64,000 nucleotides of DNA from Flavobacteriaceae bacterium (GCA_030065775.1 JASJDL010000001.1:687-64686); one strand, 5' to 3'. Positions 16,859 through 34,074 are shown, counted from the stretch's first letter. Notes: generated from the sequence alone by a model not told the origin. Made by a program: numbers and translations.

Positions 16859-17272
16859 CTAATGCGGCAATTTGTCTTTAAGAAGGCCATATAGAAATGT
16901 ACCTATAATTGCAAATAGAATCACAATCAATATTGGTAAGAAACCAGCACCTGCCAAGGTAAACATAGGTCCCGGGCATGCACCTGCTAAGGCCCAGCCT
17001 AGACCAAATATAATGCCTCCTATAATATATCTACTGATACTTTGTTCCTTCGGATAGAAAATTATTTTCTGTCCGTAAAATGATTTAATCTTAAAGCGCT
17101 TGATGACTTGTACAATGCTAATCCCCAAGATAACAGCCGTACCAATAATGCCATACATATGAAAGGATTCGAATCGAAACATTTCATAAATTCTGAACCA
17201 TGATGCAGCTTCTGATTTGAATAAAGTGATTCCGAATAGGATACCTATGAGTAAATATGAAATTGTTCGCAT
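16859..17272 (-). CDS. YeeE/YedE (PmpB/DUF6691-like) sulfur-compound transporter subunit
   Basis: GGIIFGLGWALAGACPGP motif, 4 TM helices. Confidence 0.9.
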   Translation of the reverse strand: MRTISYLLIGILFGITLFKSEAASWFRIYEMFRFESFHMYGIIGTAVILGISIVQVIKRFKIKSFYGQKIIFYPKEQSISRYIIGGIIFGLGWALAGACPGPMFTLAGAGFLPILIVILFAIIGTFLYGLLKDKLPH

Positions 17273-17275
17273 GCC

Positions 17276-17836
17276 TTAAAAAATTAGTGGAAATAAAATG
17301 TGGATCATGAACAGTCCGCCCAAAAAGAAACCTATGACTGCTAGTAATGAGGGTACTTGAAGGTTGCTCAACCCAGATATGGCATGCCCGGAAGTGCAAC
17401 CACCGGCATAACGGGCTCCAAAACCTACTAAAATACCACCAACGGCAAGTATGAGCACGCTTTTGAAATTATACATAGCTGAAAGACCGAATAACTCTGT
17501 AGGTAAATAGGCGTCGCCTGCACTTTGAAATCCAAGTTCATTCAATCGTTCTACCGTCTTGGGATTAATTGTGACGGATGGGTCATTCGTTAAAAAGAAG
17601 GATGCTATAAAACCTCCGATAATAACACCAAGAACAACGATGAGATTCCAACGTTGCGCTTTCCAATCGAACTTAAAAAAATCTGCCGTTTTATCGGCTC
17701 CACAAATAGTACAAAGCGTTCGCAGATTAGAAGACATGCCAAATGTTTTATCTATCATGATCAGTAAAAACATCACCAATGCTATCATAGCCCCTGAAGT
17801 GTACCAGGGCCAGGGTTCGAAAATCCAGTTCATCAT
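17276..17836 (-). CDS. YeeE/YedE (PmpA-like) sulfur-compound transporter subunit
   Basis: GGILVGFGARYAGGCTSGHAISGL motif. Confidence 0.92.
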   Translation of the reverse strand: MMNWIFEPWPWYTSGAMIALVMFLLIMIDKTFGMSSNLRTLCTICGADKTADFFKFDWKAQRWNLIVVLGVIIGGFIASFFLTNDPSVTINPKTVERLNELGFQSAGDAYLPTELFGLSAMYNFKSVLILAVGGILVGFGARYAGGCTSGHAISGLSNLQVPSLLAVIGFFLGGLFMIHILFPLIF

Positions 17837-17884
17837 AATTTAGTTTTGGAACTACAAAAGAACATAATTTCATATAAATAGTAT

Positions 17885-17898
17885 GTAACTTTTATTAC
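17885..17898 (-). promoter_or_regulatory. GTAAC-N4-GTTAC box upstream of the yeeE/yedE pair (one mismatch)
   Basis: GTAACTTTTATTAC; -7-like TTCTTTTG on the minus strand at 17855-17862, offset 30. Confidence 0.7.
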
Positions 17899-17900
17899 AT

Positions 17901-17937
17901 AAAAAAGGCCGACTATAGAAAATAGCTGACCTTTTTT
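17901..17937 (-). terminator. Probable terminator after sqr
   Basis: AAAAAAGG-CCGACTAT/ATAGCTGA-CCTTTTTT imperfect hairpin with A/T tails. Confidence 0.55.
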
Positions 17938-17962: not shown

Positions 17963-19210
17963 TTATACGTCCTTTCCCTTCAACATTTTATTCCAGTAGA
18001 GGTAGGGAAGCATATATTTTTTCAGGATCCACAATCTCCAGTGCTCTTTAGAAGAATCAGAAATAAGCATTCGTTTCAATTTTGGGTCGGGGGTAAAATT
18101 TCCATCGTAATCGAATTCAGCTAAGACCATTTTTCCATAATCTGTGACCAAAGGACATGAAGAATAACCATTATAAGCCATATTTCCTTTTTTAGCATGT
18201 TCAATTAATAAGGAAATATTGTCAACTGCTACGGGTACCTGTTTTCGGATAGCAGCGCCCGTTTTTGCAGTAGGTAAACCACAGACATCGCCTAGACCAA
18301 AAATATTGCTATATTTCTTATGTTGCATGGTATATTGATCTACATCAAGCCATTTAGCATCATTTACCAAGGGTGATTCTTGTATAAACTTAGGTGCCAC
18401 TGAAGGTGGGGCAGTATGCAACATATCATAGTGGATGCCAATAAGATCGCCATCTTTTGATATTTTAATGTCTTTGGAGTTTACTTCTGACTGGTTATCA
18501 CCTAAAGCATACCAGGCTATTTTATTTTCTCCATCTATTTTTTTCAACTGGTGCCCGAAGCGTAGATGCGTATCTTTTTTAGTATTTACTTCCATTAAGG
18601 TTTTCTTAATCTCGGGTATTCCAAAGATGACACCACCGCTCGTGGCAAACACAACGTTACTTTGTTTTCTGACACCGCTTTTTCTAAAATGACTTTCAGC
18701 CAGATACATTATTTTTTGTGGGGCTCCACCACATTTTATAGGGGTAGTGGGTTGTGTAAATAGTGCAGTTCCGCCTTTGAAATTCTTAATCACATTCCAG
18801 GCGTGTTTAGGATCGGTATAAACACTGCAGACAACACCTTTATCCATAGCTTCGCCTAATCCGGGCACCAAAGAATAGTCATATACCAAACCCGGGGCAA
18901 CTACCAAATAATCATAAGTATGGTCACCACTTGATTTGGTTGAAACAGTATTCTTTTCAGGATCAAAAGCGGTTGCATAATCTTTAATCCAGTGTACTCC
19001 TCTGGGCATTACACTAGCCATTGGTTTGGCGGTTTTATCAAAATTATAGGTGCCAGCTCCTACCAAGGTCCAGGCGGGCTGGTAGTAATGTGTGTCCGCT
19101 GGTTCTATAAGTCCGATACTATATTTCTTATTTTTTTTCAATAATTGAGCGGCGGCCATAATACCGGCCGTTCCTCCTCCTATGATCAATACTTGATGAT
19201 GAGAACTCAT
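17963..19210 (-). CDS. sqr: Sulfide:quinone oxidoreductase, type II
   Basis: GGGTAG FAD motif, HYYQP.WT.VG.G, KCGGAPQK, KTGAA and YSSCPLVT redox-Cys motifs, AEFDY. Confidence 0.92.
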   Translation of the reverse strand: MSSHHQVLIIGGGTAGIMAAAQLLKKNKKYSIGLIEPADTHYYQPAWTLVGAGTYNFDKTAKPMASVMPRGVHWIKDYATAFDPEKNTVSTKSSGDHTYDYLVVAPGLVYDYSLVPGLGEAMDKGVVCSVYTDPKHAWNVIKNFKGGTALFTQPTTPIKCGGAPQKIMYLAESHFRKSGVRKQSNVVFATSGGVIFGIPEIKKTLMEVNTKKDTHLRFGHQLKKIDGENKIAWYALGDNQSEVNSKDIKISKDGDLIGIHYDMLHTAPPSVAPKFIQESPLVNDAKWLDVDQYTMQHKKYSNIFGLGDVCGLPTAKTGAAIRKQVPVAVDNISLLIEHAKKGNMAYNGYSSCPLVTDYGKMVLAEFDYDGNFTPDPKLKRMLISDSSKEHWRLWILKKYMLPYLYWNKMLKGKDV

Positions 19211-19266: not shown

Positions 19267-19280
19267 GTAACTTTTGTTAC
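19267..19280 (-). promoter_or_regulatory. GTAAC-N4-GTTAC box upstream of sqr
   Basis: GTAACTTTTGTTAC; -7-like TACATTTA at 19237-19244 (minus strand), offset 30. Confidence 0.85.
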
Positions 19281-19318: not shown

Positions 19319-19522
19319 CTACTTGGTTTTACAAGTATTCAGGCCAACTACGGCATATAGCGGACAAAAACTTATGAAGCTTGTTACTACAAATATTGCA
19401 GCTAAAGCGATAAGAATGTAAGCCAGGGTTCCTCCAATAATATTTTGGTAATACAATATGCCAATTACCACTGCAATAAGGATTCTGATTATGCGGTCTG
19501 CACCGCCCATATTTTTTTTCAT
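19319..19522 (-). CDS. DUF2892 (YgaP-like) small membrane protein
   Basis: MKKNMG..DR.IR ... FCPLY...G.NTC signature. Confidence 0.92.
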   Translation of the reverse strand: MKKNMGGADRIIRILIAVVIGILYYQNIIGGTLAYILIALAAIFVVTSFISFCPLYAVVGLNTCKTK

Positions 19523-19660: not shown

Positions 19661-19672
19661 TGATAATTATCA
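19661..19672 (-). promoter_or_regulatory. TGAT-N4-ATCA (FNR-like) box upstream of the small ORF/DUF2892
   Basis: TGATAATTATCA perfect palindrome; -7 TATTTTTG at 19630-19637. Confidence 0.75.
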
Positions 19673-19688: not shown

Positions 19689-21128
19689 TTAAGATTTCAC
19701 CTTTTTCTTAAAAGTATAACTAAACCCTGCCATGATCATTGATGTAGTCATATCATAGGATACTTCTGAGCCGGGAATCTGTCCTAATGGGTTCGTTGTG
19801 GCATCCCAGGGCCCGTCCGGAAATCCATCCTCATTAAAATCGACTGCCGGTACAGGGCTCAAAAGAGGCCCCGCGGTGGAACCACCACTTGTTCCAAAAT
19901 GAAAAACGGCATCAAAAGATAAATTGTCCGTTGCTTTATAGCTTAAACCAAATTGAAATGCATTTTTGATAATTGCGGTTGCAGGAGTATTAAAGAATGC
20001 CAATTCGTCCTTAATTGGGTTTGAGCTATAGGTGTATCCTACACGCAGTGGTACTTTATCAATACCCTTATATTGAAGGCCTGCTGAAACAACGGAAATA
20101 CTTTCCCATCCAAATCCATTGACGGCACCTGTTGGAAATCCTTGAAAAGGACCACTTTGGGCTATTTGCCAACCACTGGATTCAAAACCATCCGTATTTT
20201 CGTAATCGATGAATCGATAGTCTAAGGCCAGATCTATATCACCCTTGGAATACCCAAATCCTAGAGAATAAATGGCAGGATAATCTAAATTAAATGATAC
20301 ATTCGGTGCCGAGGTTTGGCCTGGATCTAAATAGGTATTTTCGAAATCAAAATCTCCAAAGAATTGTGTAGTCTTATAGGACGCACCGGCACTGAAACCC
20401 GATCCTGAATCATAAAATATCCCTATCTGCCCACCAAAACCTATAGCATTTGCTTTGTCACTCATTGGATATCCTAAAGTCTGACTTGGCACTGCCAAAG
20501 GGTTCGGTTGAATTTCTAAAGTTGCATAGTCAACAGTTGGCTGGATACCTATGGAAAATTTATCTGATAGTTCATAGGCCCATGTAAAACCTACTTGTAA
20601 TAAAATGTAGTCTGATTCTATTCTTCCGAAGCCCATGGCTGCTTGCGGGTAATTTATGGGGTTAGAATTCATCGTAGGGTTAAAGTTTGCATTTAAAGGA
20701 TGGTTTGGTTCTTGGGGGAAGGTGACACCAAACCCGGCAATACCGAAAGCCGAGGCACCAAATGCATGTTTGCTTCCTTCTTTGCTCCATACATAAGCTA
20801 AAGCCGGTAAAGGTGACAGACCTCTATCATCTTTTGTTACACCACGTACCGCCGGGGCACCAGGCCCTAATAGACCGGCAGGTAACGAGGATGATAATTC
20901 AGGTGAAGAAAAGAATAAACCCAAATCAAATTTCAACGTGCTTTCATCAAAAGCTGAAATTGAAGCCGGGTTCCATTGTAGTGCTCCTGAGATATCAAGA
21001 GGTTGGCCAGTGGCTGCGCCACCCATAGACATGTTTACAGAACCAACACCTTGCATAACATGACCTGTCTGGCCAGTCAAAATCCAAGGCATAACAATTA
21101 AAACAATTAAAAAAAGTCTTGTTTTCAT
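19689..21128 (-). CDS. OmpP1/FadL/TodX family outer-membrane channel
   Basis: Signal peptide, SMGGA.T......AL.WNPA hatch motif, LRVGYTY, C-terminal beta-strand FSYTF. Confidence 0.88.
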   Translation of the reverse strand: MKTRLFLIVLIVMPWILTGQTGHVMQGVGSVNMSMGGAATGQPLDISGALQWNPASISAFDESTLKFDLGLFFSSPELSSSLPAGLLGPGAPAVRGVTKDDRGLSPLPALAYVWSKEGSKHAFGASAFGIAGFGVTFPQEPNHPLNANFNPTMNSNPINYPQAAMGFGRIESDYILLQVGFTWAYELSDKFSIGIQPTVDYATLEIQPNPLAVPSQTLGYPMSDKANAIGFGGQIGIFYDSGSGFSAGASYKTTQFFGDFDFENTYLDPGQTSAPNVSFNLDYPAIYSLGFGYSKGDIDLALDYRFIDYENTDGFESSGWQIAQSGPFQGFPTGAVNGFGWESISVVSAGLQYKGIDKVPLRVGYTYSSNPIKDELAFFNTPATAIIKNAFQFGLSYKATDNLSFDAVFHFGTSGGSTAGPLLSPVPAVDFNEDGFPDGPWDATTNPLGQIPGSEVSYDMTTSMIMAGFSYTFKKKVKS

Positions 21129-21261: not shown

Positions 21262-21273
21262 TGATAATTATCA
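21262..21273 (-). promoter_or_regulatory. TGAT-N4-ATCA (FNR-like) box, proximal fadL-like promoter
   Basis: TGATAATTATCA, identical to the 19661 copy; -7 TAATTTTG at 21231-21238 with the same offset. Confidence 0.75.
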
Positions 21274-21329: not shown

Positions 21330-21343
21330 GTAACTTAAGTTAC
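21330..21343 (-). promoter_or_regulatory. GTAAC-N4-GTTAC box, distal fadL-like promoter
   Basis: TGTAACTTAAGTTACA perfect palindrome; -7 TAGATTTG at 21300-21307, offset 30. Confidence 0.88.
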
Positions 21344-21353: not shown

Positions 21354-21986
21354 CTACTTTCTTTGGAAAACCGTATAAATATAAGGACGCGGCGAAGCGG
21401 AGGGGGTGAGATGCGTATAATTCAAATATTTGATAAGCTTGAAATCATTACCAATTTTCTCTTGAAGCAACCTATGATCATATTGCTGGATTTCTAATCC
21501 ACTGCATTTCTTTGCTCCTTCTTTAGAAAATATCCCTATTAGTGCATAGCCTCCAGGCTTAACCAATTTATTTACTGATTTAAAGTAGGAATCTTGTTCT
21601 TCTTTCTTTGTAAGGAAGTGTAACATAGCGCGATCTTGCCAAAGATCAACAGGCTCTAGTAAGTGAAGTTTTTTGGGTTTTGTTAAATCATCAACCAGAA
21701 AGGATACATTTTTTGCACGCTGCTGCAAGCGCTCCTTTAATAATTTCATGGCTATTGTACTAATATCGATAGCAGTTATATTTGAGTATCCGGCATCTAA
21801 CAACTCATCGATCAAGGTACTTGCCCCGGCACCTACGCTTAGTATATGTGCATTTTTTTCTAAGCGTAAATTTTGAATAAGTTTTAAAGAAACATTGGAG
21901 GTCTTCTCATACCAGCCCAGCTCATGCAGGGCTTTGCTTTCGTAGGCTTCGTCCCAATGCTTTTGTAGGTCAATTTCAACAGTCAT
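21354..21986 (-). CDS. Class I SAM-dependent methyltransferase
   Basis: HWDEAY, VGAGAS motif I, DIS, WQDRAMLHFL, GAKKCSGL. Confidence 0.88.
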   Translation of the reverse strand: MTVEIDLQKHWDEAYESKALHELGWYEKTSNVSLKLIQNLRLEKNAHILSVGAGASTLIDELLDAGYSNITAIDISTIAMKLLKERLQQRAKNVSFLVDDLTKPKKLHLLEPVDLWQDRAMLHFLTKKEEQDSYFKSVNKLVKPGGYALIGIFSKEGAKKCSGLEIQQYDHRLLQEKIGNDFKLIKYLNYTHLTPSASPRPYIYTVFQRK

Positions 21987-22068: not shown

Positions 22069-23478
22069 TTACAATGTGCTTGGACACACGTAATCAGTCA
22101 TTTCTACACCAGCTTCTTTCATTGCTTTATACCCACCGGCCACATCAATTATATTATGAATTCCTCTGCTTTTCAGGATAGATGCTGCTACAATGCTTCT
22201 GTAGCCGCTAGCACAATGCACATAGAAATTTTCTTTATCGGGAAATTCCGCTAAATGATCATTTAAGAAGTCGAGAGGTGTATTATTGGCGTCAACCACA
22301 TGCTCTGACTGAAATTCTCCTTTTTTACGTACATCAAATACTTTTATTTTTTCTGCGTCCATGGCTTCTTTGAAAGCATCCGCCGAAATAGACGTTAGTG
22401 TATCATATTCTTTTGAGGCGTTTTTCCATGACTTAAAACCACCTTTTAAATAACCTAATGTGTTGTCAAAACCAACTCGGGAGAGTCTGGTAACAGCTTC
22501 TTCTTCTCTTCCTTCAGGAGTCACAAGTAAAATGGGTTGCTGCACATCGGCTATTAATGCGCCCACCCAGGGGGCGAAACTTCCGTCAAGGCCTATGAAA
22601 ATGGATCTTGGAATATGTCCTTCTGTGAATTCAGTTTTGCCACGTACATCCAAAACCACGGCATCTGTTTCATTGGCGGCTGCCTCAAAAGCATCTGGTG
22701 ATAATGCCTGTGTACCGCGCTTGATGACCTCATCAATATCAGCATATCCTTCTTTATTCATTTTGACATTTAATGGAAAATATGCTGGTGGCGGTAACAA
22801 GCCTTCCGTTACTTCTTCAATAAATTCTTCCCGCGTCATGTTTGCACGAAGGGCATAATTAGTTTTTTTCTGATTACCTAAAGTATCAACTGTTTCCTTA
22901 CTTAGGTTTTTACCGCATGCTGAACCGGCTCCATGCGCTGGATATACGATGACATCATCGGCTAACGGCATAATTTTAGAGCGCAGGCTGTCGAATAAAG
23001 TACCAGCCAATTCCTCTTGGGTCATATCGGCAGCTTTTTGAGCGAGATCGGGTCTTCCCACATCACCTAAAAATAGAGTATCTCCACTAAAAATCGCATG
23101 ATCTTTACCATCCTTATCTCGTAATAAATACGTAGTACTTTCCATGGTATGGCCTGGGGTATGTAGTGTAACAATCGTACTATCTCCAAGTTTAAATTCC
23201 TGACCGTCTTTCGCTATAATCGCGTCAAAACTAGGGTTCGCATTTGGACCATAAATAATAGGTGCACCTGTCTCCTTCGATAAAGTAACATGACCACTTA
23301 CAAAATCGGCATGAAAATGTGTTTCGAAGACATATTTGATAGTGGCATTGTTCTTTCTTGCCTTATCAATATATGGTTTTACTTCTCGTAAAGGGTCTAT
23401 GATGGCCACTTCACCATTACTTTCAATATAATAAGCACCCTGAGCGAGGCAACCGGTATAAATCTGTTCTATGTTCAT
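22069..23478 (-). CDS. MBL-fold persulfide dioxygenase fused to two rhodanese domains (CstB-like), copy 1
   Basis: ETHFHADFVSG, HTPGHT, GDTLF.GDVGRPDL, HGAGSACG, C-terminal rhodanese HCASGYRS. Confidence 0.9.
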   Translation of the reverse strand: MNIEQIYTGCLAQGAYYIESNGEVAIIDPLREVKPYIDKARKNNATIKYVFETHFHADFVSGHVTLSKETGAPIIYGPNANPSFDAIIAKDGQEFKLGDSTIVTLHTPGHTMESTTYLLRDKDGKDHAIFSGDTLFLGDVGRPDLAQKAADMTQEELAGTLFDSLRSKIMPLADDVIVYPAHGAGSACGKNLSKETVDTLGNQKKTNYALRANMTREEFIEEVTEGLLPPPAYFPLNVKMNKEGYADIDEVIKRGTQALSPDAFEAAANETDAVVLDVRGKTEFTEGHIPRSIFIGLDGSFAPWVGALIADVQQPILLVTPEGREEEAVTRLSRVGFDNTLGYLKGGFKSWKNASKEYDTLTSISADAFKEAMDAEKIKVFDVRKKGEFQSEHVVDANNTPLDFLNDHLAEFPDKENFYVHCASGYRSIVAASILKSRGIHNIIDVAGGYKAMKEAGVEMTDYVCPSTL

Positions 23479-23534: not shown

Positions 23535-23548
23535 GTAACCAAAGTTAC
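23535..23548 (-). promoter_or_regulatory. GTAAC-N4-GTTAC box upstream of PDO-rhodanese copy 1
   Basis: GTAACCAAAGTTAC; -7 TATTTTTG at 23505-23512, offset 30. Confidence 0.88.
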
Positions 23549-23619: not shown

Positions 23620-25032
23620 TTATAACATTGTGGTGGGGCAAATATACTCAGATTTTGGTACTGAAGTTTCTTTGATTTCGTCGAATCCTTCAGTGATATC
23701 TTTTATATCCTGCCAACCCCTTTGTTTTAAAATGGATAAAGCGATCATACTCCTGTAACCACTTCGGCAATGAAGGATAATTGGTTTATCTTTGGGTAGC
23801 TCAGCCAGGTGTTTATTGATCTCATTTAATGGAATATTGTAAGCACCTTCGACATGTTGTGAGTCATATTCACTTTTCTTACGAACATCAAAAACCAAAA
23901 GATCTTTAGTAAACATTTTTTCAAATTCTTTAACGCTTATTCTTCCAACAGTTTCAATTTCTTTACCTGCATTTTTCCAAGTATCAAACCCTCCTTTTAG
24001 GTAACCAATGGTGTGATCATAACCAACTCGGGATAAACGTGTAATAGCTTCTTCTTCTTTACCAGGATATGTTATCAACAAGATTTCTTGTTTCACATCA
24101 GGAATCATCTCACCTACCCACTGGGCGAAATTACCATCTAACCCAATATTGATACTGTTTGGAACGAATCCTTTAGCGAAGTCATCAGCATCTCTGGTGT
24201 CTAAGACCAAAGCGCCTGTTTCGTTAGCGGCAGCATCAAAAGCATCTGGGCTAAACAAATGACTTGCTCTGGTCATGACGGTATCCAGGCTGTCATATCC
24301 TTTTATGTTCATTAATACATTTTGAGGAAAGTATCCCGGAGGCGCTGTTAAACCAGTTAATAACTCTTCAATAAATTCCTCTTTAGTCATGTCTGCCCTC
24401 AACGCATAATTTACCTCTTTTTGATGGCCTAAAGTATCTGTGGTTTCTTTACTCATCATTTTACCACAAGCCGAACCGGCACCATGGTTAGGATACACGA
24501 TTAAATCATCACTTAAAGGCATAATTTTAGTTCTTAAGGAATCATATAAATGCCCTGCGAGTTTTCGCTCTGTAAGATCAGAAACAACATGCTGCGCAAG
24601 GTCAGGACGCCCTACGTCACCGATAAATAAGGTGTCACCTGTAATGATACCGTGTTCCTGATCATTTTCATCAATTAATAAGTATGTTGTACTTTCCATG
24701 GTATGCCCAGGAGTATGTATTACTTTGACTTTGTAATTACCGACATTAAAAATCTGGCCGTCTTTTGCAACTGTGGCTTCATAGCCTGGTTTAGCAGTTG
24801 GTCCAAAAACAATTTCAGCTCCGCTCTTTTTTCTTAGATCCAGGTGCCCACTTACAAAATCTGCGTGGAAATGTGTTTCAAAAACATATTTTATCTCTGC
24901 ATTATCAATTTGTGCTCTGTCAATGTAAGGTTGTACCTCACGTAAAGGGTCGAAAACCGCTGCCTCACCATTATTCTCTATATAATATGCGGCGTGCGCT
25001 AAACATCCGGTATAAATTTGTTCTACTTTCAT
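23620..25032 (-). CDS. MBL-fold persulfide dioxygenase fused to two rhodanese domains (CstB-like), copy 2
   Basis: Same motifs as copy 1; rhodanese loop HCRSGYRS; ATG at 25032 (MKVEQIYTGCL) by homology to copy 1. Confidence 0.9.
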   Translation of the reverse strand: MKVEQIYTGCLAHAAYYIENNGEAAVFDPLREVQPYIDRAQIDNAEIKYVFETHFHADFVSGHLDLRKKSGAEIVFGPTAKPGYEATVAKDGQIFNVGNYKVKVIHTPGHTMESTTYLLIDENDQEHGIITGDTLFIGDVGRPDLAQHVVSDLTERKLAGHLYDSLRTKIMPLSDDLIVYPNHGAGSACGKMMSKETTDTLGHQKEVNYALRADMTKEEFIEELLTGLTAPPGYFPQNVLMNIKGYDSLDTVMTRASHLFSPDAFDAAANETGALVLDTRDADDFAKGFVPNSINIGLDGNFAQWVGEMIPDVKQEILLITYPGKEEEAITRLSRVGYDHTIGYLKGGFDTWKNAGKEIETVGRISVKEFEKMFTKDLLVFDVRKKSEYDSQHVEGAYNIPLNEINKHLAELPKDKPIILHCRSGYRSMIALSILKQRGWQDIKDITEGFDEIKETSVPKSEYICPTTML

Positions 25033-25089
25033 TTTTATTTTTTTAAAAATTATATCTACGAAAGTTACCAGCAATTATTATTATATACA

Positions 25090-25103
25090 GTAACTTTAGT
25101 TAC
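25090..25103 (-). promoter_or_regulatory. GTAAC-N4-GTTAC box upstream of PDO-rhodanese copy 2
   Basis: GTAACTTTAGTTAC; -7-like TAACTTTC at 25060-25067, offset 30. Confidence 0.87.
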
Positions 25104-25129: not shown

Positions 25130-26878
25130 CTATTTATTGGTCTGCCGAATGTATTTGTGGAATTTATCGGGCTTTTCCTTCCCTTCTTTCATGATTGAAT
25201 AGGCGTCAACTGCTTCCTGAATACTCATGAAACAATTATCGTAACCCAGAATGTTCATTACACCCCCTTTGTCTAGGGCATCCCTTACGGGGCCTTTAAT
25301 TCCTGAAAACACCACTTGAATGTTCTGACCACCGTAATATTCTAAGACTTCAATTAAGGTATGAACACCGGTACTATCAATGGTATTCATACTTTCGCAA
25401 TCAATAATAATGAGTTGGAGCGCCGGACCTTTTTCTACCACTAATTCCTCTAATGTATCTTTAAAAAAAGTAGTGTTTGCGAAATATAATTGGGCATCAA
25501 ACCGTACGATCAAAATATCATCTTTTACGATTACATCCTTACCAAAGCGTTCTACATTTCTATAAAAATGTGTCCCATGTATGTTTGCCAATACCGCCAC
25601 ATGTGGCCTGGTGGTTTTCAGAATGACCATGACTAAAGAAAGAATGACACCCACACCAATTCCTTTTTCGATACCAAGAGTTAAGGTAGCGAAAAAAGTG
25701 GCAAGCAGCAGAAAGAAATCAGTTCTATTGCTTTTCCACAAGTACAACACTTCCTTATAATCGATCAGCCCGAAAACAGCCACCATGATAACCGCAGCCA
25801 GAATTGATTTTGGAAGATTGTGAAAATAAGGCGTTAAAAATAAAAGTGTTATTACAATAAGGATGGCACTGACGACTGATGCCATAGTTGTTTTAGCGCC
25901 AGCCTGATCACTTACGGCTGTCCTTGAAAATCCACCTGTCGTAGGATAGGATTGAAAAAAAGAACCTATGATATTGGCCAGACCTAATCCTATCAATTCC
26001 TGGTTTGGTACCACTTTGTAGTCTCTGTGTTTTAATTGGATCGCCTTCGCCACAGCGATGCTTTCCATAAAACTGACGAATGCAATGGTAGCAGCCATTG
26101 GTAAAAGTATATTTATGACCTTTAGATCAAACGAAGGAATGCTAAAACCTGGTAATGAACTGGGGATTTCACCAACGATCTTAACAGGATTGTTCCCCTG
26201 ATTGAGCCCAAAAATAGATACGGCTAATATTCCAAATACAACAGCAAGTAGTTGACTCGGAAAACCTTTCTTTATTTTTTTAGATAGTATTATAATCAAG
26301 ATTCCAATACTTCCAATTCCAAAGGATATCCAGTTAATTTCATCGAATTTACTAATTGCATTCAACAAAATCTCATGGATATGGTGTGACCTTGGTATGT
26401 CTATGCCCAATAAACTTTTTAACTGACTAAGCCCAATAATGAGGGCTGCCGCTGATGTAAAGCCACTTATGACCGGGTGAGAGAGAAAATTGACCAGAAA
26501 ACCAAGCTTGAAAATCCCTAATAGAAACTGAATGGCACCTACTAGAAAAGCTAAAATGATCGCATACATAATGTATTGTTCTATTGTAATGCCTTCAAAT
26601 GAGCTAATGGCTGTGGCCGTTAATAAGGATACCATAGCTACGGGCCCAACAGCAAGTTGTCTGGAGGTGCCAAGTAGCGCATAAATTAATAAAGGAACAA
26701 TCGAAGCGTACAAACCATAAACTTCAGGTAGACCGGCAATGGAAGCATAGGCCATACCTTGCGGAATCAACATAATACCAACTGTTAACCCGGCGCCAAT
26801 ATCGCCTTTCAGCCAACTTCTCTTATAATTGGGGGCCCATTCTAAAACTGGCAGTATCGATTTCAACGAAATTTTCAT
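25130..26878 (-). CDS. SulP/SLC26 anion transporter with STAS domain
   Basis: IPQGMAYA...GLP..YGLY, GGFSRTAV, LYFAN, IDSTG. Confidence 0.93.
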   Translation of the reverse strand: MKISLKSILPVLEWAPNYKRSWLKGDIGAGLTVGIMLIPQGMAYASIAGLPEVYGLYASIVPLLIYALLGTSRQLAVGPVAMVSLLTATAISSFEGITIEQYIMYAIILAFLVGAIQFLLGIFKLGFLVNFLSHPVISGFTSAAALIIGLSQLKSLLGIDIPRSHHIHEILLNAISKFDEINWISFGIGSIGILIIILSKKIKKGFPSQLLAVVFGILAVSIFGLNQGNNPVKIVGEIPSSLPGFSIPSFDLKVINILLPMAATIAFVSFMESIAVAKAIQLKHRDYKVVPNQELIGLGLANIIGSFFQSYPTTGGFSRTAVSDQAGAKTTMASVVSAILIVITLLFLTPYFHNLPKSILAAVIMVAVFGLIDYKEVLYLWKSNRTDFFLLLATFFATLTLGIEKGIGVGVILSLVMVILKTTRPHVAVLANIHGTHFYRNVERFGKDVIVKDDILIVRFDAQLYFANTTFFKDTLEELVVEKGPALQLIIIDCESMNTIDSTGVHTLIEVLEYYGGQNIQVVFSGIKGPVRDALDKGGVMNILGYDNCFMSIQEAVDAYSIMKEGKEKPDKFHKYIRQTNK

Positions 26879-26936: not shown

Positions 26937-26950
26937 GTAACTATTGTTAC
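26937..26950 (-). promoter_or_regulatory. GTAAC-N4-GTTAC box upstream of SulP
   Basis: GTAACTATTGTTAC; -7 TATCTTTG at 26907-26914, offset 30. Confidence 0.88.
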
Positions 26951-26957
26951 TTGCTAT

Positions 26958-28682
26958 TCAAAGGACCTCATGGCACTCTTTAAATGCCTTTTTAGTACAG
27001 GGTTGTTTTAGTTGGTTATGAATTGCTATAATCGCACTTCTTTTATCCTTAAAGAAGATGTGTTCACCTACACGTTTCTTGAAGCCTCCGGTTTCCAGCA
27101 CATCCTGACTTACGAGTTTTAGTCCTGCGATATAAATCCCACCACGATGTTCTTTCCACTTGAGCATTTCATAGGTTAACCATTCTGCAGCAGCCAAGTC
27201 AATGAAATTTATGCCGTCAGCGGCAATGAGTACATAGTCAATTTTATTTTCATCGTATAAGTTCGCAAAAAAGTCTGCAATTTTTTCAATAGACCCAAAA
27301 TATAGTGATCCGTCAATGCGCACGATTTTCATACTCGAACACTCTTTTGCTTCCGAATCTCGAATGGTATTTACCAAGCGTCCCTTCTCATCTAGTGCTA
27401 AAATGGCGATGTTCGGTTTGGAGGTTCTTTCAAGATAAAAGAAGAATGAAGTAATGATTCCGGCCAATAATGCAAATTCGAGATCAAAGAAAAGCGTTCC
27501 AACCAGTGTAACTGTTAAGACGATAACTTCCTTACCACTACTTTTGTATACTTGTTTTATATGATGAAAATCTATAAGATTATAACCAACAAGAAGAATA
27601 ATTCCACCCATGGTCGCCTTTGGTAAATATGCTGCATAACCTGCCAGTGTTAGTACCACAGCCATTAGTAAAATGGAGGCGAAGATTGCTGCCATTGGGG
27701 TTTTGGCCCCGGCTTGATGATTCACGCCAGAGCGCGTGAAGGAGCCTGATCCGGCATAACTTGAAAAGAAACTAGCTATTAAATTAGAGAGTCCTTGACC
27801 GATAAATTCTTGATTACCATCAATTTTTTGATGTGTTTTTAAGGCAATTGCCCGTCCTATCGCAACGGCTTCTATAAGCCCGAGCAGTGCAAGTACCATC
27901 GCTCCCGAGCTTAATTTCTGAACATTTTCAATAGTCAATTCAGGAATTCTGAATGGAGGCAGGTTTGAAGGCACATTACCAACAGTTTCAATCCCTTGTT
28001 GTTCCCCGCCCATTAACAGTGCTAAAACACTTCCCAATACCATGGCGATCAACATATAATATCGCGAAAGCGGTTTTATAAGGTGCTTAATTACTAAAGC
28101 TACCAGTAAAGTGCCTATAGCCACAATAAAAACATTCCAATTCGTGCTTGATATATTTTCGGCTATATGGGTAATGATCTCCAAAATGGTACTTCCCTGA
28201 GGAACTTTAATGGCAAATACATGGCTTAATTGTTTGAATGCGATGAGTATACCGGCCCCTGCGGTAAATCCTATAATCACTGAATGTGAAACGAAATTTA
28301 CAAGCTTGCCCATTTTCATTAACCCCATCAAAAATTGGAAAAGACCAGTAAGAAAAGTTAAAACCAGGGCCATTGAAACAAACATTTCAACATCACTTTC
28401 GGGGTTTAGATTCAATTTTACGAGTGTAGCATATACAACGATTGAAATAGCTGTAGTTGGCCCGGAAATTAAATGATAAGATGAGCCAAATAAAGCAGCG
28501 ATGATAGGAGTGATCATAGCAGTATAAAAACCATAAATTGGAGGGAGGCCTGCAATTATGGCGAAAGCTACAGCTTGTGGAATTACAATAACTGTTCCGG
28601 TAATGCCAGCAATCAGATCATCTTTCCATGTGGTTTTGACTTTTGGAAGCCATAACAGAAAAGGAAACAGTTTACTAAGCAT
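26958..28682 (-). CDS. SulP/SLC26 anion transporter with STAS domain (in the molybdoenzyme operon)
   Basis: IPQAVAFA.IAGLPP.YG, SGSFTRSGVN, GSLYFG, INFIDL. Confidence 0.93.
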   Translation of the reverse strand: MLSKLFPFLLWLPKVKTTWKDDLIAGITGTVIVIPQAVAFAIIAGLPPIYGFYTAMITPIIAALFGSSYHLISGPTTAISIVVYATLVKLNLNPESDVEMFVSMALVLTFLTGLFQFLMGLMKMGKLVNFVSHSVIIGFTAGAGILIAFKQLSHVFAIKVPQGSTILEIITHIAENISSTNWNVFIVAIGTLLVALVIKHLIKPLSRYYMLIAMVLGSVLALLMGGEQQGIETVGNVPSNLPPFRIPELTIENVQKLSSGAMVLALLGLIEAVAIGRAIALKTHQKIDGNQEFIGQGLSNLIASFFSSYAGSGSFTRSGVNHQAGAKTPMAAIFASILLMAVVLTLAGYAAYLPKATMGGIILLVGYNLIDFHHIKQVYKSSGKEVIVLTVTLVGTLFFDLEFALLAGIITSFFFYLERTSKPNIAILALDEKGRLVNTIRDSEAKECSSMKIVRIDGSLYFGSIEKIADFFANLYDENKIDYVLIAADGINFIDLAAAEWLTYEMLKWKEHRGGIYIAGLKLVSQDVLETGGFKKRVGEHIFFKDKRSAIIAIHNQLKQPCTKKAFKECHEVL

Positions 28683-28746: not shown

Positions 28747-31656
28747 TTAATTAGTATCACTTATAAAATAGCATCCACCTTCTATTTTATCGGGCGTAAA
28801 TGCTCTTTTAAACCATAATGGACGTCGTTCACCATTAGGTCCGGGGGCAGGTCGAGTCATTGATAGCCATTCTTTATAAATCTCATGTGATTTATTAGTA
28901 TCTACAACTATGTCACCGTAGTTTTCGTTAGGCCCGGGCTTCTCAATTCGAACACGCTGATGCCAGCAATGCATACCACTAATGGGGTCGGGATGTACGG
29001 CATGCGTGATATTTTGGTGTACACCACCATCTTTCCAAAAGATACGTTTCGAATCACTATCTTCAGATTCAAATGGTTGTATTCCCGAAAGCGTATTCAT
29101 ATGCCATTTACCTTGTCCGTCATTTTCAATATTAACAGTATTAGTGGCCCATCTATTTCCTATTTTATCTTGTGTTCTTCGCCATCTTCCTATGTGATGT
29201 GAGCAGGCAACTACACCTGGTTTCATACTTTGAGTCACCCATACTTTATCAATGAAGTAGCCAATATCTGTATTCATTTTGACTAAGTCCCCTGTTTTAA
29301 ATCCCCATTTAGCCGCGTCTTCCGGATGCATCCAGATCGGATTTCTATTGGAGATCTCCACCAGCCATTTGGCATTTCCCGATCGTGTATGAATTAAAGT
29401 TGGTAACCTGAAGGTAGGTACTAACACGTATTCACCTTTAGATTTGTCCAGGTGATCACTATGAATATGGCTTTTTATGTATTGGGGAATCGCATATTCG
29501 GGCCATTTCCAATCAACCATGGTTTGTGAATAGAATTCATTTTTTCTGGAAGGAGTAGGAAAGCCAACAACCGCCTTTCCTTTGATTAACACGCCAATAG
29601 CTTTTCCTTCTTTATAAACTACATCGGTTTTTTTATCGATAGTTGAACCTTCGAGCTGTTGCTCTGTTAATAGGGTTTCATTTACTTTATAAGACTCTCC
29701 CTGTTCTATTTCATAGGCTCCATATTTTTGCATATAGTTCAACTCTGCAAAAGGACCGGTAAAGCCATCAGCTTTAGCTGCTTCTGGTAGACCATTTACC
29801 CGTTCAAAAATGTATTGATAGTATTCTTCAATGGTGATTTTTTCTCCAGGCCGGTAAGGTGATTCAAAATGTTTACGGATACCCATACTGCCGTCTGGAT
29901 CAATGCGCCACGAAAGTTCAATCCAAAATTCATCTTCCTCCCAAACTTCTCCCGGATTTGCCTGGTAAGTATATTCAACAGGATTTCCATTTCTACGGGC
30001 AGCTTCCCTGAGCACGGGTTGCCTAAAGGCCACCCAGGTTCCACCATGTGTAGCATAGGAGTTGATGTCATGTCGCTCTGAAGCTAAGCCCATGGGTAGT
30101 ACAAAATCTGCATAAAAAGCCGTTTCATTCCAGGTGGGTGTCAAGGCGGCATGCACGCCGAATTTATCTTCATCAGTTAATTGTTCAATCCATGTAAATC
30201 CGTCGGGATAGGTCCATACAGGATTAAATACCCTTGTAAAATAAACATCCATTTTACCACGGCCTTCCTTGAGAAAATGAGGTAATAACTGACTCATTTC
30301 AAAAAAGGCGAGTGGGTACTCTCTTGGGAAATGTAGCTCATTCCACTTTTTATGAGGTTCAGGAGGATTTGGTTGTGTAGGGCTAAACTTATTCCATGAA
30401 TTCGGTGAAGTACCCCCTTTTGTACCTACAGCGCCGGTTAATACTGTTAAGAAATGTAAGCATCGTGCGACACACCAGCCCCCTAAATTTGATGCTCCAG
30501 CAGCGCGCCAGTTATGTGATGCGAATCGCTCTCCGGCTTTGCCAATTTCTCTGGCTATTTCTATGATTGTCGAAGCCTTAACACCAGATTCTTTTTCGGC
30601 AAATTCAGGCGTAAATTCTTTATATTCTTCGATCATCGAACTTATGTAGTTCTCAAAAGTCACTTTTTTCTTCGGATGCCTGGCCTCCAAATATTCCTTC
30701 CAATTTGTCCAATTTTCTAGATATTCTCTATTGTATAGCCCTTCTTTTAGAATGATTACTGCCATAGCCAATAAAACGGCAGCCTCGGTTCCGGGATAAG
30801 TGGGAAGCCAATAATCAGACATTGAAGCCGTATTTGATAATCTTGGGTCCATCGTGGCCAGCTTGGCGCCTTTCATTTTGCCTTCAATGATGCGTTGTGC
30901 ATGCGGATTAAAATAATGCCCAGACTCTAAGTGGGCAGATACCAATAAGATGAATTGGGCATTGGCATGGTCTGGTGATGGGCGATCGTAACCATACCAT
31001 ATATTATAGCCGAATCGCGCTCCCGATGAACAAATATTGGTATGCGAATTGTGACCATCGATTCCCCATCCTTGTAAAATCCAGTTCATGAATTTTTCAT
31101 GCCCTGGACGCCCAACATGGTATGCAACTTCGTTATGACGATCTTCTTTGATGGCTTTTCTAATTCTTGTTGAAAGCGTATCCAATACTTCATCCCATGT
31201 TACCCGTTCCCATTCGCCATCACCTCTTTTTCCTTTTCGTTTTAGAGGGAATAATATCCGGTCGGGATCTTTAATTTGATTGATTGTCGCGGGCCCTTTA
31301 GCGCAATTCCTGCCTCGACTTCCGGGATGATGAGGATTCCCCTCAAATTTCTTGACTTCCTGGGTTTCTTTCTCAATAAATGCTGTTAAGCCACAAGCAC
31401 TCTCGCAATTAAAACAAGTAGTCGGTACGATCTGATAGGTCTTTTTAACCTTTTTTGGCCATGCTTTGGGATCGTATTCGATCCAATTATCCCAGGTCTC
31501 AGGAGAGGGAAAATTTTCATACATTTCTGCGATTTCTTCATCGCTAAATTTCCGCATGTCTTGATCAGTCTCCTGGCGATTATCTTTGTGTAGATTTGGA
31601 ATGACCCCTAACTTTTCTGCTATGTTTTCGATGAATGAAGGTTTTTTATATCCCAT
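28747..31656 (-). CDS. Molybdopterin (bis-MGD, DMSO reductase family) oxidoreductase catalytic subunit, Psr/Soe/Arr-like, no Tat signal
   Basis: TTCFNCESAC...NCAKG FS0 cluster, DPDRILFPLKR.G.RG.G.WERVTWDE, SHTNICS putative Cys ligand, ETA.YAD.VLP, MHPEDA..G..GD.V; no RRxF motif. Confidence 0.9.
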   Translation of the reverse strand: MGYKKPSFIENIAEKLGVIPNLHKDNRQETDQDMRKFSDEEIAEMYENFPSPETWDNWIEYDPKAWPKKVKKTYQIVPTTCFNCESACGLTAFIEKETQEVKKFEGNPHHPGSRGRNCAKGPATINQIKDPDRILFPLKRKGKRGDGEWERVTWDEVLDTLSTRIRKAIKEDRHNEVAYHVGRPGHEKFMNWILQGWGIDGHNSHTNICSSGARFGYNIWYGYDRPSPDHANAQFILLVSAHLESGHYFNPHAQRIIEGKMKGAKLATMDPRLSNTASMSDYWLPTYPGTEAAVLLAMAVIILKEGLYNREYLENWTNWKEYLEARHPKKKVTFENYISSMIEEYKEFTPEFAEKESGVKASTIIEIAREIGKAGERFASHNWRAAGASNLGGWCVARCLHFLTVLTGAVGTKGGTSPNSWNKFSPTQPNPPEPHKKWNELHFPREYPLAFFEMSQLLPHFLKEGRGKMDVYFTRVFNPVWTYPDGFTWIEQLTDEDKFGVHAALTPTWNETAFYADFVLPMGLASERHDINSYATHGGTWVAFRQPVLREAARRNGNPVEYTYQANPGEVWEEDEFWIELSWRIDPDGSMGIRKHFESPYRPGEKITIEEYYQYIFERVNGLPEAAKADGFTGPFAELNYMQKYGAYEIEQGESYKVNETLLTEQQLEGSTIDKKTDVVYKEGKAIGVLIKGKAVVGFPTPSRKNEFYSQTMVDWKWPEYAIPQYIKSHIHSDHLDKSKGEYVLVPTFRLPTLIHTRSGNAKWLVEISNRNPIWMHPEDAAKWGFKTGDLVKMNTDIGYFIDKVWVTQSMKPGVVACSHHIGRWRRTQDKIGNRWATNTVNIENDGQGKWHMNTLSGIQPFESEDSDSKRIFWKDGGVHQNITHAVHPDPISGMHCWHQRVRIEKPGPNENYGDIVVDTNKSHEIYKEWLSMTRPAPGPNGERRPLWFKRAFTPDKIEGGCYFISDTN

Positions 31657-31668
31657 TTTAATGAAGTA

Positions 31669-33285
31669 TTAAGCGAGTGGTATTCTTTGAGGTGCTTCAA
31701 CCCAAATTTTTTCTGTAAAATAAATTCCTAAGAATATCGATAAAGCAGCAAGTGTTAACGTTGCTGTTGTAGGTTGGATGAATAGCAATACCAATGGTAG
31801 CACGTTACCTATTATAAGGGATCCCACCCAAAACAATGTTTTATACCTACCTGATGTGATCATTTTAACGACACTTTTTGCAGCAGTAGTAGCGTGTGTG
31901 GTTGTTAGTTCTGTTATCAACGTAAAAAGATTTACTAATAAGGCCCCAATTAAAATTGGCTTTAAGATTAGCATCCAGGATTCACTTCCTGCAATAAACC
32001 CGATGAAAATAAAGACAGCAGCACCCGCCATGATACTATGAACTAACATGTGTAGCACGAGTGAAGGACTTTGCCAGAAATCCCTTCCTTTGGCCTGAGC
32101 GAAAAGAAACGCTGTATATGTTGCTAAAAGAACTGCAAAAACTGCAGTGACCCATAGCAAGGGTTTTTCAGGGATCGTCCAATTAAAATAGGTGGCCGCC
32201 CCCCATAATGTTACCAGTAGTCCAAAGATGGTAATGGTATAGCCTCCTTTCACCAACCATGAGTTCCATTGCGGCCGTAATAAGACATATAAAAATCTGT
32301 CGGGCCTGTCTAAATCTAGAACTAGAAATAATCCTGTTAAAGCCAAAAAGAACAAAGAAACACCTACTGACCATAATTTGGTCGTGTCAGATAAATCATA
32401 TCCAACTAATAGGGCCACAAAAGGAATTAAAAAAGTCCCGGCAGCAATAGCTTTTGTAATGACATAGGCTATTACCTCCCAACCCCATAATATACCTTTA
32501 TCAGGAGTATCATAGACTCTTCTTGCCGAACCATTTAATACGTCAATATAATTTGGATTTTCAGACTCCTTTCGTTGGTAAGCTGCTTCGATTTCATTGT
32601 CTATGGATAGCTGCAACAAATCAATATCATCATTCGTATTGATCATTTTTTCGGCTGCTTTGGCGAAATGGCCAACGCCCCTTGCCTGGGAATTCCAAAG
32701 TCCGGGCCCGGACGGATGTGTAGCTTCAGGATTTAAAGAAGCCTCATCACCGTCTATGTAGTATAAATTTGGATGTGTACCTTTTTCGGGTTTTCTAACC
32801 TTAACCTGCTGCCGCGCCAATAATTGTGAAATTTCGGTTTGTGGATTTTCCATATCGCCTGCAATTATTGCATGTTCAGGGCAAACACTTACACAGGCAG
32901 GCTCCCGGCCAACATCAACGCGATGTGCACAATAGTTACACTTTGCAGCTGTGTGGGTTTCAGGATCAATATATAGGGCATCATACGGACAAGCTTGCAT
33001 ACACGATTTACACCCGATACATCTGTCATTGTCGAAGTCTACGATGCCATCATCTCTGACATATAAGGCCTCTACAGGGCAAATTTCCACACATGGGGCA
33101 TCAGTACAATGATTGCACCGCATTACCGAAAATATTCTTCGGGTATTTGGAAATTGACCTTTTTCTACTTGTTTTACATACGTACGATTAACTCCTACAG
33201 GAACATCATGCTCGGATTTACAGGCTGTAGTACAGGCATGACAACCGATACACTTTCGATTGTCAATTATAAATCCATATTTCAT
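31669..33285 (-). CDS. Fused 4x[4Fe-4S] ferredoxin (NrfC/PsrB-like) and NrfD/PsrC-like 8-TM anchor
   Basis: CIGCHACTTAC, CNHC..APC..ICP, CIGCKSC..ACP and CNYC...PAC...CP motifs, then WG..V..Y, DLDRPDRF and about 8 TM helices. Confidence 0.92.
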   Translation of the reverse strand: MKYGFIIDNRKCIGCHACTTACKSEHDVPVGVNRTYVKQVEKGQFPNTRRIFSVMRCNHCTDAPCVEICPVEALYVRDDGIVDFDNDRCIGCKSCMQACPYDALYIDPETHTAAKCNYCAHRVDVGREPACVSVCPEHAIIAGDMENPQTEISQLLARQQVKVRKPEKGTHPNLYYIDGDEASLNPEATHPSGPGLWNSQARGVGHFAKAAEKMINTNDDIDLLQLSIDNEIEAAYQRKESENPNYIDVLNGSARRVYDTPDKGILWGWEVIAYVITKAIAAGTFLIPFVALLVGYDLSDTTKLWSVGVSLFFLALTGLFLVLDLDRPDRFLYVLLRPQWNSWLVKGGYTITIFGLLVTLWGAATYFNWTIPEKPLLWVTAVFAVLLATYTAFLFAQAKGRDFWQSPSLVLHMLVHSIMAGAAVFIFIGFIAGSESWMLILKPILIGALLVNLFTLITELTTTHATTAAKSVVKMITSGRYKTLFWVGSLIIGNVLPLVLLFIQPTTATLTLAALSIFLGIYFTEKIWVEAPQRIPLA

Positions 33286-33366
33286 ATTGGCAATTTATTA
33301 GTTACTATTGGTTGAATTAAAATTGAATAAGACTTTAAATATAGACAGAAAAACACCAATGGATAA

Positions 33367-33380
33367 GTAACAAAAGTTAC
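33367..33380 (-). promoter_or_regulatory. GTAAC-N4-GTTAC box upstream of the molybdoenzyme operon
   Basis: GTAACAAAAGTTAC; -7-like TATATTTA at 33336-33343, offset 31. Confidence 0.85.
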
Positions 33381-33438
33381 ACAAGAGTAAATCGCTCATT
33401 TTCGAAAATCATAAAATGAGTAGAAACATAGGTACACA

Positions 33439-34074
33439 CTAGTCTAAATTAATGACCTCAATATTATTTCTGTGAAGTTCTATTTTATCTTGATTTTCAA
33501 GTTTCTTCAATAATCTTGAAACCACAACCCTTGATGTATGGAGTTCGTACGCAATTTGCTGATGTGTATTGTGAATAATATTATCTTCCGATATTCTAGA
33601 TTTTTCTTTTAGGTATTTTAACAAGCGCTCATCCATATTCAAAAAAGCGATGCTGTCTATAGTTTCGAGCATTTCATTGAGTCGGTTGTGATAACTTTCG
33701 AAAACAAAATTTCTCCAGCTTTTGTATTTGGCCGACCATTCCTCCATTTTTCGAACAGGAATCATAATAAGCTTAGTATCAGTTTCGGCAATAGCGCGAA
33801 TTTCACTTTTTGTTTGTCCTAAGCAACATGTAAGCGTCATGGCACAGGTATCACCTTTTTCCAAAAAATATAAAAGTAATTCATCGCCGTCATTATCTTC
33901 CCGCAATATTTTAATTGCTCCTGAGATCAATAAGGGTATCGATTTAATATAATCTCCAATTTCAATCATTTTGTGTCCTTCGGGAACTTCTTTGAAAGTT
34001 CCCACCTGATTTATTTCTTGAATAAGGGCGTCTTCGAAAAGATGACCATAATTCATTTTTAGCTCCTCAACCAT
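33439..34074 (-). CDS. Crp/Fnr family transcriptional regulator
   Basis: cNMP-binding-like domain with CAMTLTCC, RLL.YL, HTH THQQIAYELHTSRVVVSRLLKKLE. Confidence 0.93.
   Translation of the reverse strand: MVEELKMNYGHLFEDALIQEINQVGTFKEVPEGHKMIEIGDYIKSIPLLISGAIKILREDNDGDELLLYFLEKGDTCAMTLTCCLGQTKSEIRAIAETDTKLIMIPVRKMEEWSAKYKSWRNFVFESYHNRLNEMLETIDSIAFLNMDERLLKYLKEKSRISEDNIIHNTHQQIAYELHTSRVVVSRLLKKLENQDKIELHRNNIEVINLD

Follow-up and report, generated by a model that had tools for sequence, protein, structure and literature searches.

The PSRLC3-type complex, described between 2008 and 2013, is a cytoplasmic molybdoenzyme that is known from green sulfur bacteria, SAR406, Marine Group II archaea and others (PMC3906813, PMC6338057). 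Wright et al. described a complex without a twin-arginine (Tat) signal, with a psrBC fusion and the gene order psrBCA; it is present in SAR406, Marine Group II, Haladaptatus and Caldilinea and was proposed to oxidise the sulfite derived from Dsr (PMC3906813). In Chlorobaculum tepidum, the complex CT0496-CT0494 is cytoplasmic and a proposed sulfite oxidiser (PMC3906813, PMC6338057, PMC8232776); sulfide induces it, and its promoter contains a Crp-like motif (bioRxiv 10.1101/172254). The tentative name formate:quinone oxidoreductase ('FqoABC') was given to the complex by Calisto and Pereira, who found its anchor to be separate from SoeC (PMC8076601). In the passage of PMC8232776 that quotes Dahl (2013), the green sulfur bacterial complex is treated as the counterpart of SoeABC. 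Work on Ruegeria pomeroyi has examined a route from sulfide:quinone oxidoreductase (SQR) via persulfide dioxygenase (PDO) to Soe, and such a route has also been discussed for Beggiatoa (bioRxiv 10.1101/2022.12.07.519552; PMC11507549). Here we analysed a stretch of 64,000 nucleotides from a Flavobacteriaceae bacterium (GCA_030065775.1 JASJDL010000001.1:687-64686), called the window below, in which the region 16859-34074 combines a PSRLC3-type molybdoenzyme with SQR and PDO genes and a shared promoter palindrome.

Genes were called from an open reading frame (ORF) listing and from Pfam and NCBIfam domain scans of the window; the host assembly amounts to 2.84 Mb in 205 contigs and is about 80% complete. 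The region contains 13 consecutive genes, all on the minus strand and with the domains that an earlier note on this DNA had read from them. The molybdoenzyme is encoded by two of these genes. The upstream one (31669-33285) is an ORF of 538 amino acid residues in which a four-cluster ferredoxin (Fer4_11, residues 52-144) is fused to an NrfD quinone anchor with eight transmembrane helices (residues 264-518), the 'PsrBC' or 'SoeBC' part. After a gap of 12 nt follows the gene (28747-31656) of the 'PsrA'-type catalytic subunit, a protein of 969 residues of the molybdenum-bis(pyranopterin guanine dinucleotide) (Mo-bisPGD) type with the domains Molybdop_Fe4S4, Molybdopterin and Molydop_binding. The cysteines of its FS0 cluster are residues 81, 84, 88 and 118, and Cys209, followed by Ser210, aligns with the molybdenum ligand Cys173 of Thermus thermophilus PsrA and with a cysteine of ArrA. 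The amino-terminus of the catalytic subunit shows no RR motif and no hydrophobic leader, hence no Tat signal, and the fused subunit has no signal peptide. In the fused subunit, the loops between the eight predicted helices contain 10 lysine and arginine residues on the side of the iron-sulfur (FeS) domain and 2 on the opposite side. By the positive-inside rule, and since signal peptides are absent, the FeS domain and the catalytic subunit therefore face the cytoplasm, as do the A and B parts of SoeABC.

Homologues of the catalytic subunit were found in 60 of the 401 genomes of a phylum sample, including 41 of 87 in a single family, where the identity was 65-67% and spanned residues 4-957. As the FMO bacteriochlorophyll protein was present in all four genomes of this family that were tested, the family was taken to be the Chlorobiaceae; named Chlorobium loci, 82-85% identical to the Chlorobiaceae orthologue, confirmed this. 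Each Chlorobiaceae carrier genome has a single strong homologue, which lacks a Tat signal. The signal is also missing in the Chlorobium orthologue P0400, and the fused subunit is about 52% identical to its Chlorobiaceae counterpart. The Chlorobium locus has the order FadL-type outer-membrane gene, fused FeS-NrfD gene, Tat-less catalytic subunit and TauE/SafE. That this Chlorobiaceae homologue equals the tags CT0496-CT0494 was taken from the literature and not from the C. tepidum sequence. With the Tat-less catalytic subunit, the FeS-NrfD fusion upstream and the orthology to the green sulfur bacterial complex all found, the molybdoenzyme is, judged by sequence, a PSRLC3-type two-gene cytoplasmic complex (psrBC-psrA).

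The locus thus resembles CT0496-CT0494 in its Tat-less catalytic subunit of about 960 residues, in the single upstream gene for the fused FeS/NrfD parts, in the BC-A order and in the identities given above. As in the Chlorobiaceae loci, an anion transporter gene comes immediately after the module and a FadL-type gene is close by, and the Crp-like motif reported for the Chlorobaculum promoter hints at a wider regulatory link. Unlike the green sulfur bacteria, the host is an aerobic heterotroph without Dsr, and the sulfite would therefore come from PDO and not from reverse DsrAB. Two SulP permeases stand here in the place of TauE, and the palindrome of the present region was not found in the Chlorobiaceae loci examined.

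The earlier note had cited SoeABC as oxidising cytoplasmic sulfite to sulfate. In its orientation the present enzyme is Soe-like: as with SoeABC of Allochromatium vinosum, Ruegeria pomeroyi and Aquifex aeolicus, the complex is a cytoplasm-facing Mo-bisPGD/FeS/NrfD enzyme with a cysteine ligand, for which oxidation of sulfite to sulfate with reduction of quinone has been proposed. It is, however, not SoeABC in the strict sense, since SoeABC is encoded by three separate genes in the order A-B-C and the present enzyme by two in the order BC-A, and since SoeC and the CT0494-type anchor fall into different dendrogram groups with different taxonomic ranges (PMC8076601). In a plasmid collection, orthologues and Arx- or YdeP-like enzymes were found, but no SoeABC. 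Plasmid matches from Azoarcus and Cereibacter were considered as SoeA references and rejected, because their neighbours are a PhnD-like binding protein, a sensor kinase, a response regulator and TorD; we take these neighbourhoods to be an Arx-type arsenite oxidase locus. PsrABC and PhsABC give the best structural and profile matches in the amino-terminal half and have the same position of the cysteine ligand and the same cofactor set, but they are Tat-exported, face the periplasm, have a catalytic subunit of about 760 residues and separate B and C subunits, and the PhsA score of the present enzyme (185.8 bits) is far below the cut-off of 694.

The catalytic subunit is 73-88% identical in Lutibacter, other Flavobacteriaceae, Saprospiraceae and Lewinella, and 53-57% identical in Thermomicrobium roseum, on plasmid pRHL3 of Rhodococcus jostii RHA1 and in haloarchaea. 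A fused FeS-NrfD gene lies immediately upstream of the latter homologues wherever annotated. A scan with one genome per species gave at least 595 relatives; neither C. tepidum TLS nor any proteobacterial SoeA was among the matches listed. The neighbourhoods were counted within 6 kb in the named loci of the best 80 relatives. These 80 belong to Chlorobiaceae, Bacteroidia, Calditrichota, Planctomycetota, Acidobacteriota, Chloroflexota, Binatia, Rokubacteria, Methylomirabilota, Marinimicrobia and deltaproteobacterial metagenome-assembled genomes (MAGs), all at 59% identity or more, a level at which relatives occur in over ten phyla.

The FeS-NrfD fusion adjoins the catalytic gene in 70 of these 80 loci. 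PDO-like genes were counted in 21 loci, including four of Ktedonobacteria, one of Terriglobia and one of a deltaproteobacterial MAG, SulP in 17, SQR in 7, TusA in 6, DsrE in 5 and TauE in 4, the last all from Chlorobium. TusA or DsrE was observed near the module in Chlorobium, Marinimicrobia, Ktedonobacteria and on Rhodococcus pRHL3, where DsrE and TusA directly precede the two genes and PDO-like metallo-beta-lactamase (MBL) hydrolases and ArsR regulators lie nearby. In Thermomicrobium a CsoR-type regulator precedes the module. Since sulfur genes recur beside the module independently across lineages, a role in sulfur metabolism is favoured. As a separate observation, the gene of an Mrp/NBP35 FeS-carrier ATPase overlaps the end of the catalytic gene on Rhodococcus pRHL3 (L028 11817-12986) and in Natrinema halophilum (L033 12014-13174), and an acidobacterial locus (L076) has a NarJ/TorD-type chaperone at that place; both are absent from the flavobacterial cassette.

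The region is a composite of a common sqr/pdo cluster with Crp-type boxes and a four-gene cassette set between crp and the first pdo. This cassette consists of the fused FeS-NrfD gene, the Tat-less catalytic subunit and two SulP/STAS anion permeases (26958-28682 and 25130-26878), both with Sulfate_transp and STAS domains; the second also passes the TIGR00815 cut-off. It is followed by two PDO-rhodanese fusions, of which the first (23620-25074) has a Lactamase_B and two Rhodanese domains and the second (22069-23478), of the common flavobacterial type, an MBL domain and two rhodanese domains. As the earlier note had expected, the sqr/pdo core is common and the molybdoenzyme unusual: PDO-rhodanese fusions were found in 286 of 300 sampled Flavobacteriaceae genera, with homologues of the second PDO up to 82% identical, and the catalytic subunit in 14 of 300, while a genome of the same genus (G161) lacks it. 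The insertion of the cassette into the backbone is indicated by a genome without the molybdoenzyme (G073), which keeps crp (84% identical), the tandem PDO genes (81 and 80%; the first is the counterpart of the first PDO of the window), the DUF2892 gene (72%) and sqr (76%) in the same order and with the same boxes, six of them in 20 kb. DUF2892 adjoins sqr in G073 and also in G180. In G161, which was compared for the borders of the insertion, the flanking peptidase and PDO lie on different contigs.

The order FeS-NrfD, catalytic subunit, SulP 1, SulP 2 and PDO is kept in other Flavobacteriaceae with the molybdoenzyme and in two other families of Bacteroidia, so that the cassette is not unique to this genome. 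The SulP 1 orthologue directly follows the catalytic gene in most Flavobacteriaceae loci and in L065, and SulP 2 is kept after SulP 1 in related loci. The other genera with the molybdoenzyme often have the YeeE pair and crp upstream, with the pair between crp and the FeS-NrfD gene, and sqr downstream. The only PDO of other Flavobacteriaceae with the molybdoenzyme is of a third type, 52-58% identical to both PDOs of the window, whereas the second PDO of the window is up to 82% identical to PDOs of genera without the molybdoenzyme; it thus seems that the cassette was joined to PDO genes of more than one lineage. Cultured carriers are the aerobes Gaetbulibacter sp. S0825 and Lutibacter aestuarii CCUG 60022, and also Flavilitoribacter nigricans DSM 23189.

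The shared promoter palindrome of the earlier note was recovered as GTAAC-N4-GTTAC, of which the region contains six perfect copies and a seventh with one mismatch, every one of them intergenic. In the 2.84 Mb of the genome there are 8 perfect copies, and the clustering of 6 of the 8 in this region has a p of about 1e-12 (binomial estimate). At all seven sites the distance from the end of the palindrome to a TAnnTTTG-like -7 box is 22-23 nt. The perfect copies lie upstream of the FeS-NrfD gene (33367-33380), of SulP 2 (26937-26950, TATCTTTG 22 nt downstream), of the first PDO (25090-25103), of the second PDO (23535-23548, TATTTTTG 22 nt downstream), of the FadL-type gene (21330-21343, TAGATTTG 22 nt downstream) and of sqr (19267-19280), and the mismatched copy upstream of the YeeE pair (17885-17898). 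By this spacing, the centre of the box would be near -41.5 in each boxed transcription unit, and -41.5 is the classical position of a class II Crp/Fnr activator. Two of the boxes belong to the four-gene cassette itself. SulP 1, which has no box of its own, is probably co-transcribed with the molybdoenzyme. At the first PDO, the TTG at 25074 falls between the palindrome and the -7 element; because this geometry places the TTG inside the promoter, the true start is probably the ATG at 25032.

Of 11 other Flavobacteriaceae loci, 9 have the box, with differing letters in the spacer, at the orthologous places ahead of the FeS-NrfD gene, of PDO and of sqr, as has one locus of another Bacteroidia family. 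At the same position upstream of the FeS-NrfD gene it was seen in loci L019, L022, L023, L025 and L026. Both perfect boxes outside the region are on contig C92. The one at 12346 lies inside gldM, probably by chance, and the one at 16047 (L003 10048) is intergenic between a DUF983 gene and an ABC-F ATPase gene and may mark an extra member of the regulon. In addition, an identical 12-mer palindrome, TGATAATTATCA, was observed at 19661-19672 and 21262-21273, upstream of the DUF2892 gene and of the FadL-type gene, where it also marks a second promoter-like site downstream of the box. This pair suggests a second regulatory input.

The candidate binder of the box is the Crp/Fnr-family protein encoded at 33439-34074. 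It has an effector domain of the cNMP-binding type and a carboxy-terminal Crp-type helix-turn-helix (cNMP_binding, PF00027, and HTH_Crp_2, PF13545, both above the cut-offs), and it reached no equivalog cut-off (CRP, NtcA) of NCBIfam. The assignment comes from adjacency and co-occurrence. Orthologues of crp were found in 242 of the 300 sampled Flavobacteriaceae genera, and by matched coordinates they usually lie 1.5-4 kb from a PDO-rhodanese gene. Both crp and PDO are present in all 14 genera with the molybdoenzyme, and crp lies 2.8-5.5 kb from the catalytic gene in at least seven of them. Two cysteines of the effector domain, Cys77 and Cys83 (C-x5-C), were invariant in a small sample of 8 orthologues with 37-84% identity. 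They would fit a thiol-based sensor of sulfane sulfur and may form a thiol switch. Described persulfide sensors belong to CsoR, ArsR, sigma-54 and other families, and none is known to belong to Crp/Fnr. We put forward, as a tentative possibility, that this protein senses sulfide or sulfane sulfur and represents a new kind of such sensor, which would act through Cys77-x5-Cys83 and activate a regulon found across the Flavobacteriaceae from boxes at -41.5, and that the PSRLC3 cassette was recruited into this regulon in about 5% of the genera.

The pathway components other than the molybdoenzyme were assigned at the level of domains. The SQR-like flavoprotein (17963-19210, Pyr_redox_2) has its best NCBIfam match with type III SQR at 220.8 bits (cut-off 525), and the MBL-fold PDO proteins carry rhodanese domains, as in the described SQR-PDO pathway. 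The best explanation of the region, and in our judgement a probable one, is a regulon in two layers for the oxidation of sulfide and sulfane sulfur under the control of the Crp-family protein. SQR would convert H2S to sulfane sulfur and reduce menaquinone, and the PDO-rhodanese fusions would convert persulfide with O2 to sulfite and thiosulfate. The molybdoenzyme would oxidise the PDO-derived sulfite to sulfate at its cysteine-ligated molybdenum centre and deliver the electrons, by way of FS0 and four FeS clusters, to menaquinone at the NrfD domain. Transport of oxyanions across the membrane would fall to the SulP permeases, and the boxes near -41.5 would allow class II activation by the Crp-family protein. 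The overall route would resemble that of Ruegeria pomeroyi and Beggiatoa leptomitoformis, with SQR, PDO and rhodanese and a cytoplasmic molybdenum sulfite dehydrogenase as the last enzyme (bioRxiv 10.1101/2022.12.07.519552; PMC11507549). It differs in that all steps are in one Crp-family regulon, in a member of the Bacteroidota, with a PSRLC3-type molybdoenzyme and with no Sox system found.

The function of the molybdoenzyme is read from its context. We consider it somewhat more probable than otherwise that it is a sulfite:menaquinone oxidoreductase which acts on the sulfite made by PDO and yields sulfate. This reading, which is also the best supported one for the step that the earlier note had placed downstream of PDO, is favoured because the cassette has its operator in common with sqr and pdo and because the sulfite from PDO arises in the cytoplasm, on the side of the active site. 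It is further favoured because anion permeases follow the enzyme here and a protein of the TauE 'sulfite exporter' family follows it in Chlorobium, and because neither a SorA/SUOX-type domain nor SoxY, and hence no alternative sulfite oxidiser, was seen in the 80%-complete genome. Several points speak against it. No purified or knocked-out member of the two-gene type was found in the literature, and for the whole family sulfite oxidation is no more than a proposal (PMC3906813, PMC6338057). The likeness to SoeABC is one of architecture and orientation, and SoeC and the CT0494-type anchor form separate clusters (PMC8076601). No equivalog cut-off of NCBIfam was reached by the molybdoenzyme; the best matches, to the DmsA/YnfE subfamily model (193 bits), PhsA and TtrB-like models, gave a quarter to half of the cut-offs. 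Many relatives in other phyla have uninformative neighbourhoods, there is no box upstream of crp itself, and the protein is assigned to the box by adjacency and co-occurrence only.

The main rival reading is another inorganic sulfur substrate. The enzyme might oxidise thiosulfate, or it might use quinol for the reduction of polysulfide, persulfide or tetrathionate in the cytoplasm, with the SulP permeases carrying thiosulfate. The closest solved or curated relatives are PsrA, PhsA and ArrA, and the Hanson laboratory calls the sulfide-induced Chlorobaculum complex a polysulfide oxidoreductase (bioRxiv 10.1101/172254). Thiosulfate is an expected product of the PDO-rhodanese fusions, the YeeE half-transporter at 17276-17836 weakly matches the thiosulfate transporter TsuA, and the soeABC deletion of R. 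pomeroyi was strongly impaired in thiosulfate oxidation, more so than on sulfite (bioRxiv 10.1101/2022.12.07.519552). However, a quinol-driven reduction of polysulfide would be uphill and odd beside an O2-dependent PDO in an aerobe. The TauE/SafE and SulP neighbours point to sulfite or sulfate, and the features of Psr and Phs are lacking, with no Tat signal and the low PhsA score. We regard a substrate of this kind as rather unlikely. A non-sulfur oxyanion, for instance of selenium, arsenic or a nitrogen oxide, would make the place of the enzyme in the sulfur regulon incidental. The DMSO-reductase superfamily is catalytically versatile (PMC10100899) and many relatives have no sulfur genes nearby, but the operator of the cassette is that of sqr and pdo at the same offset, the linkage to PDO and SulP is kept in many genera, and the domain scans found no ars, ser or nar-type partner genes in the region. 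This makes such an oxyanion quite improbable.

The assignment of the CT0494-type anchor to the putative Fqo complex (PMC8076601) and the label 'formate dehydrogenase' of some database homologues would make the enzyme a formate:quinone oxidoreductase. Formate dehydrogenases have a (Se)Cys-His dyad at the molybdenum ligand, where the present enzyme reads Cys209-Ser210. The Fdh-alpha model gave 141.9 bits against a cut-off of 666, less than the Psr/Dms-type models. SQR and PDO belong to the same regulon as the gene, TusA, DsrE and TauE are its neighbours elsewhere, and a separate FdhF/YdeP-type enzyme with FdhD is encoded on contig C123 of the genome. Formate oxidation is thus very improbable, given the ligand region, the profile scores and this separate pair.

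The region had also been called self-contained. It is not, because the genes for the molybdenum cofactor and its guanine dinucleotide form are on another contig (C148). The search that the earlier note had suggested found there moaA, moeA, moaC, a mobA-like nucleotidyl transferase gene, a ThiF/MoeB-type gene, moaE and moaD, together with a rhodanese gene, so that a lack of such genes, which the earlier note had named as a refutation, does not apply. Since the FdhF/YdeP-family molybdoenzyme on C123, preceded by its FdhD gene (L073 3972-7106), is a second one in the genome, the cofactor genes do not serve the region alone. At the edge of the cofactor cluster, a single-domain rhodanese and a DUF6265 protein are encoded (L002 2290-3230).

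The remaining genes of the region are a class I SAM methyltransferase (21354-21986, Methyltransf_25/31), a FadL/TodX-type outer-membrane channel (19689-21128, Toluene_X), a YgaP-like small membrane protein of the DUF2892 family (19319-19522, PF11127) and the two half-transporters of the YeeE/YedE family (17276-17836, Sulf_transp, and 16859-17272, a domain match to DUF6691). The methyltransferase is regarded as accessory; it had no match in the 11 other Flavobacteriaceae loci and weak matches in 2 of the 80 loci. In Chlorobium, a FadL/TodX-type gene (L063 4797-6221) precedes the PSRLC3 genes at a distance of about 1 kb, and another is inside the present regulon. Another FadL protein has reportedly been suggested by the Hanson laboratory to carry hydrophobic sulfur chains. 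Divergent from crp, at 34681-37097 on the plus strand, are a third SulP-family gene without STAS and a tandem universal stress protein gene. The SulP-like gene (34681-36261) was considered as the molybdate transporter of the region and rejected, as its MOT1 match was below the cut-off and the gene is not kept beside the cassette in other genomes.

The novelty claimed for the pathway is not supported, since the enzyme is of the PSRLC3 type, already described and very widespread, and the SQR-PDO-Soe route has been studied in Proteobacteria. No paper describing this route in Flavobacteriaceae was found in the open-access literature. New are the layered structure of a family-wide Crp regulon with a rare molybdoenzyme/SulP cassette, the conserved operator at what would be the class II position, and the identification of cultured carriers. 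For the two-gene cytoplasmic molybdoenzyme, sulfite oxidation has been predicted since 2008; the enzyme occurs in more than ten phyla. Here the enzymes that would supply its substrate are encoded with it in one compact regulon marked by the operator, and close relatives with the same backbone but without the molybdoenzyme are natural controls. With these relatives and the cultured carriers, the function of the enzyme and the full oxidation of sulfide to sulfate can therefore be put to a direct test. Should the reading hold, some marine Bacteroidota would take part in the formation of sulfate and not only release thiosulfate or sulfite.

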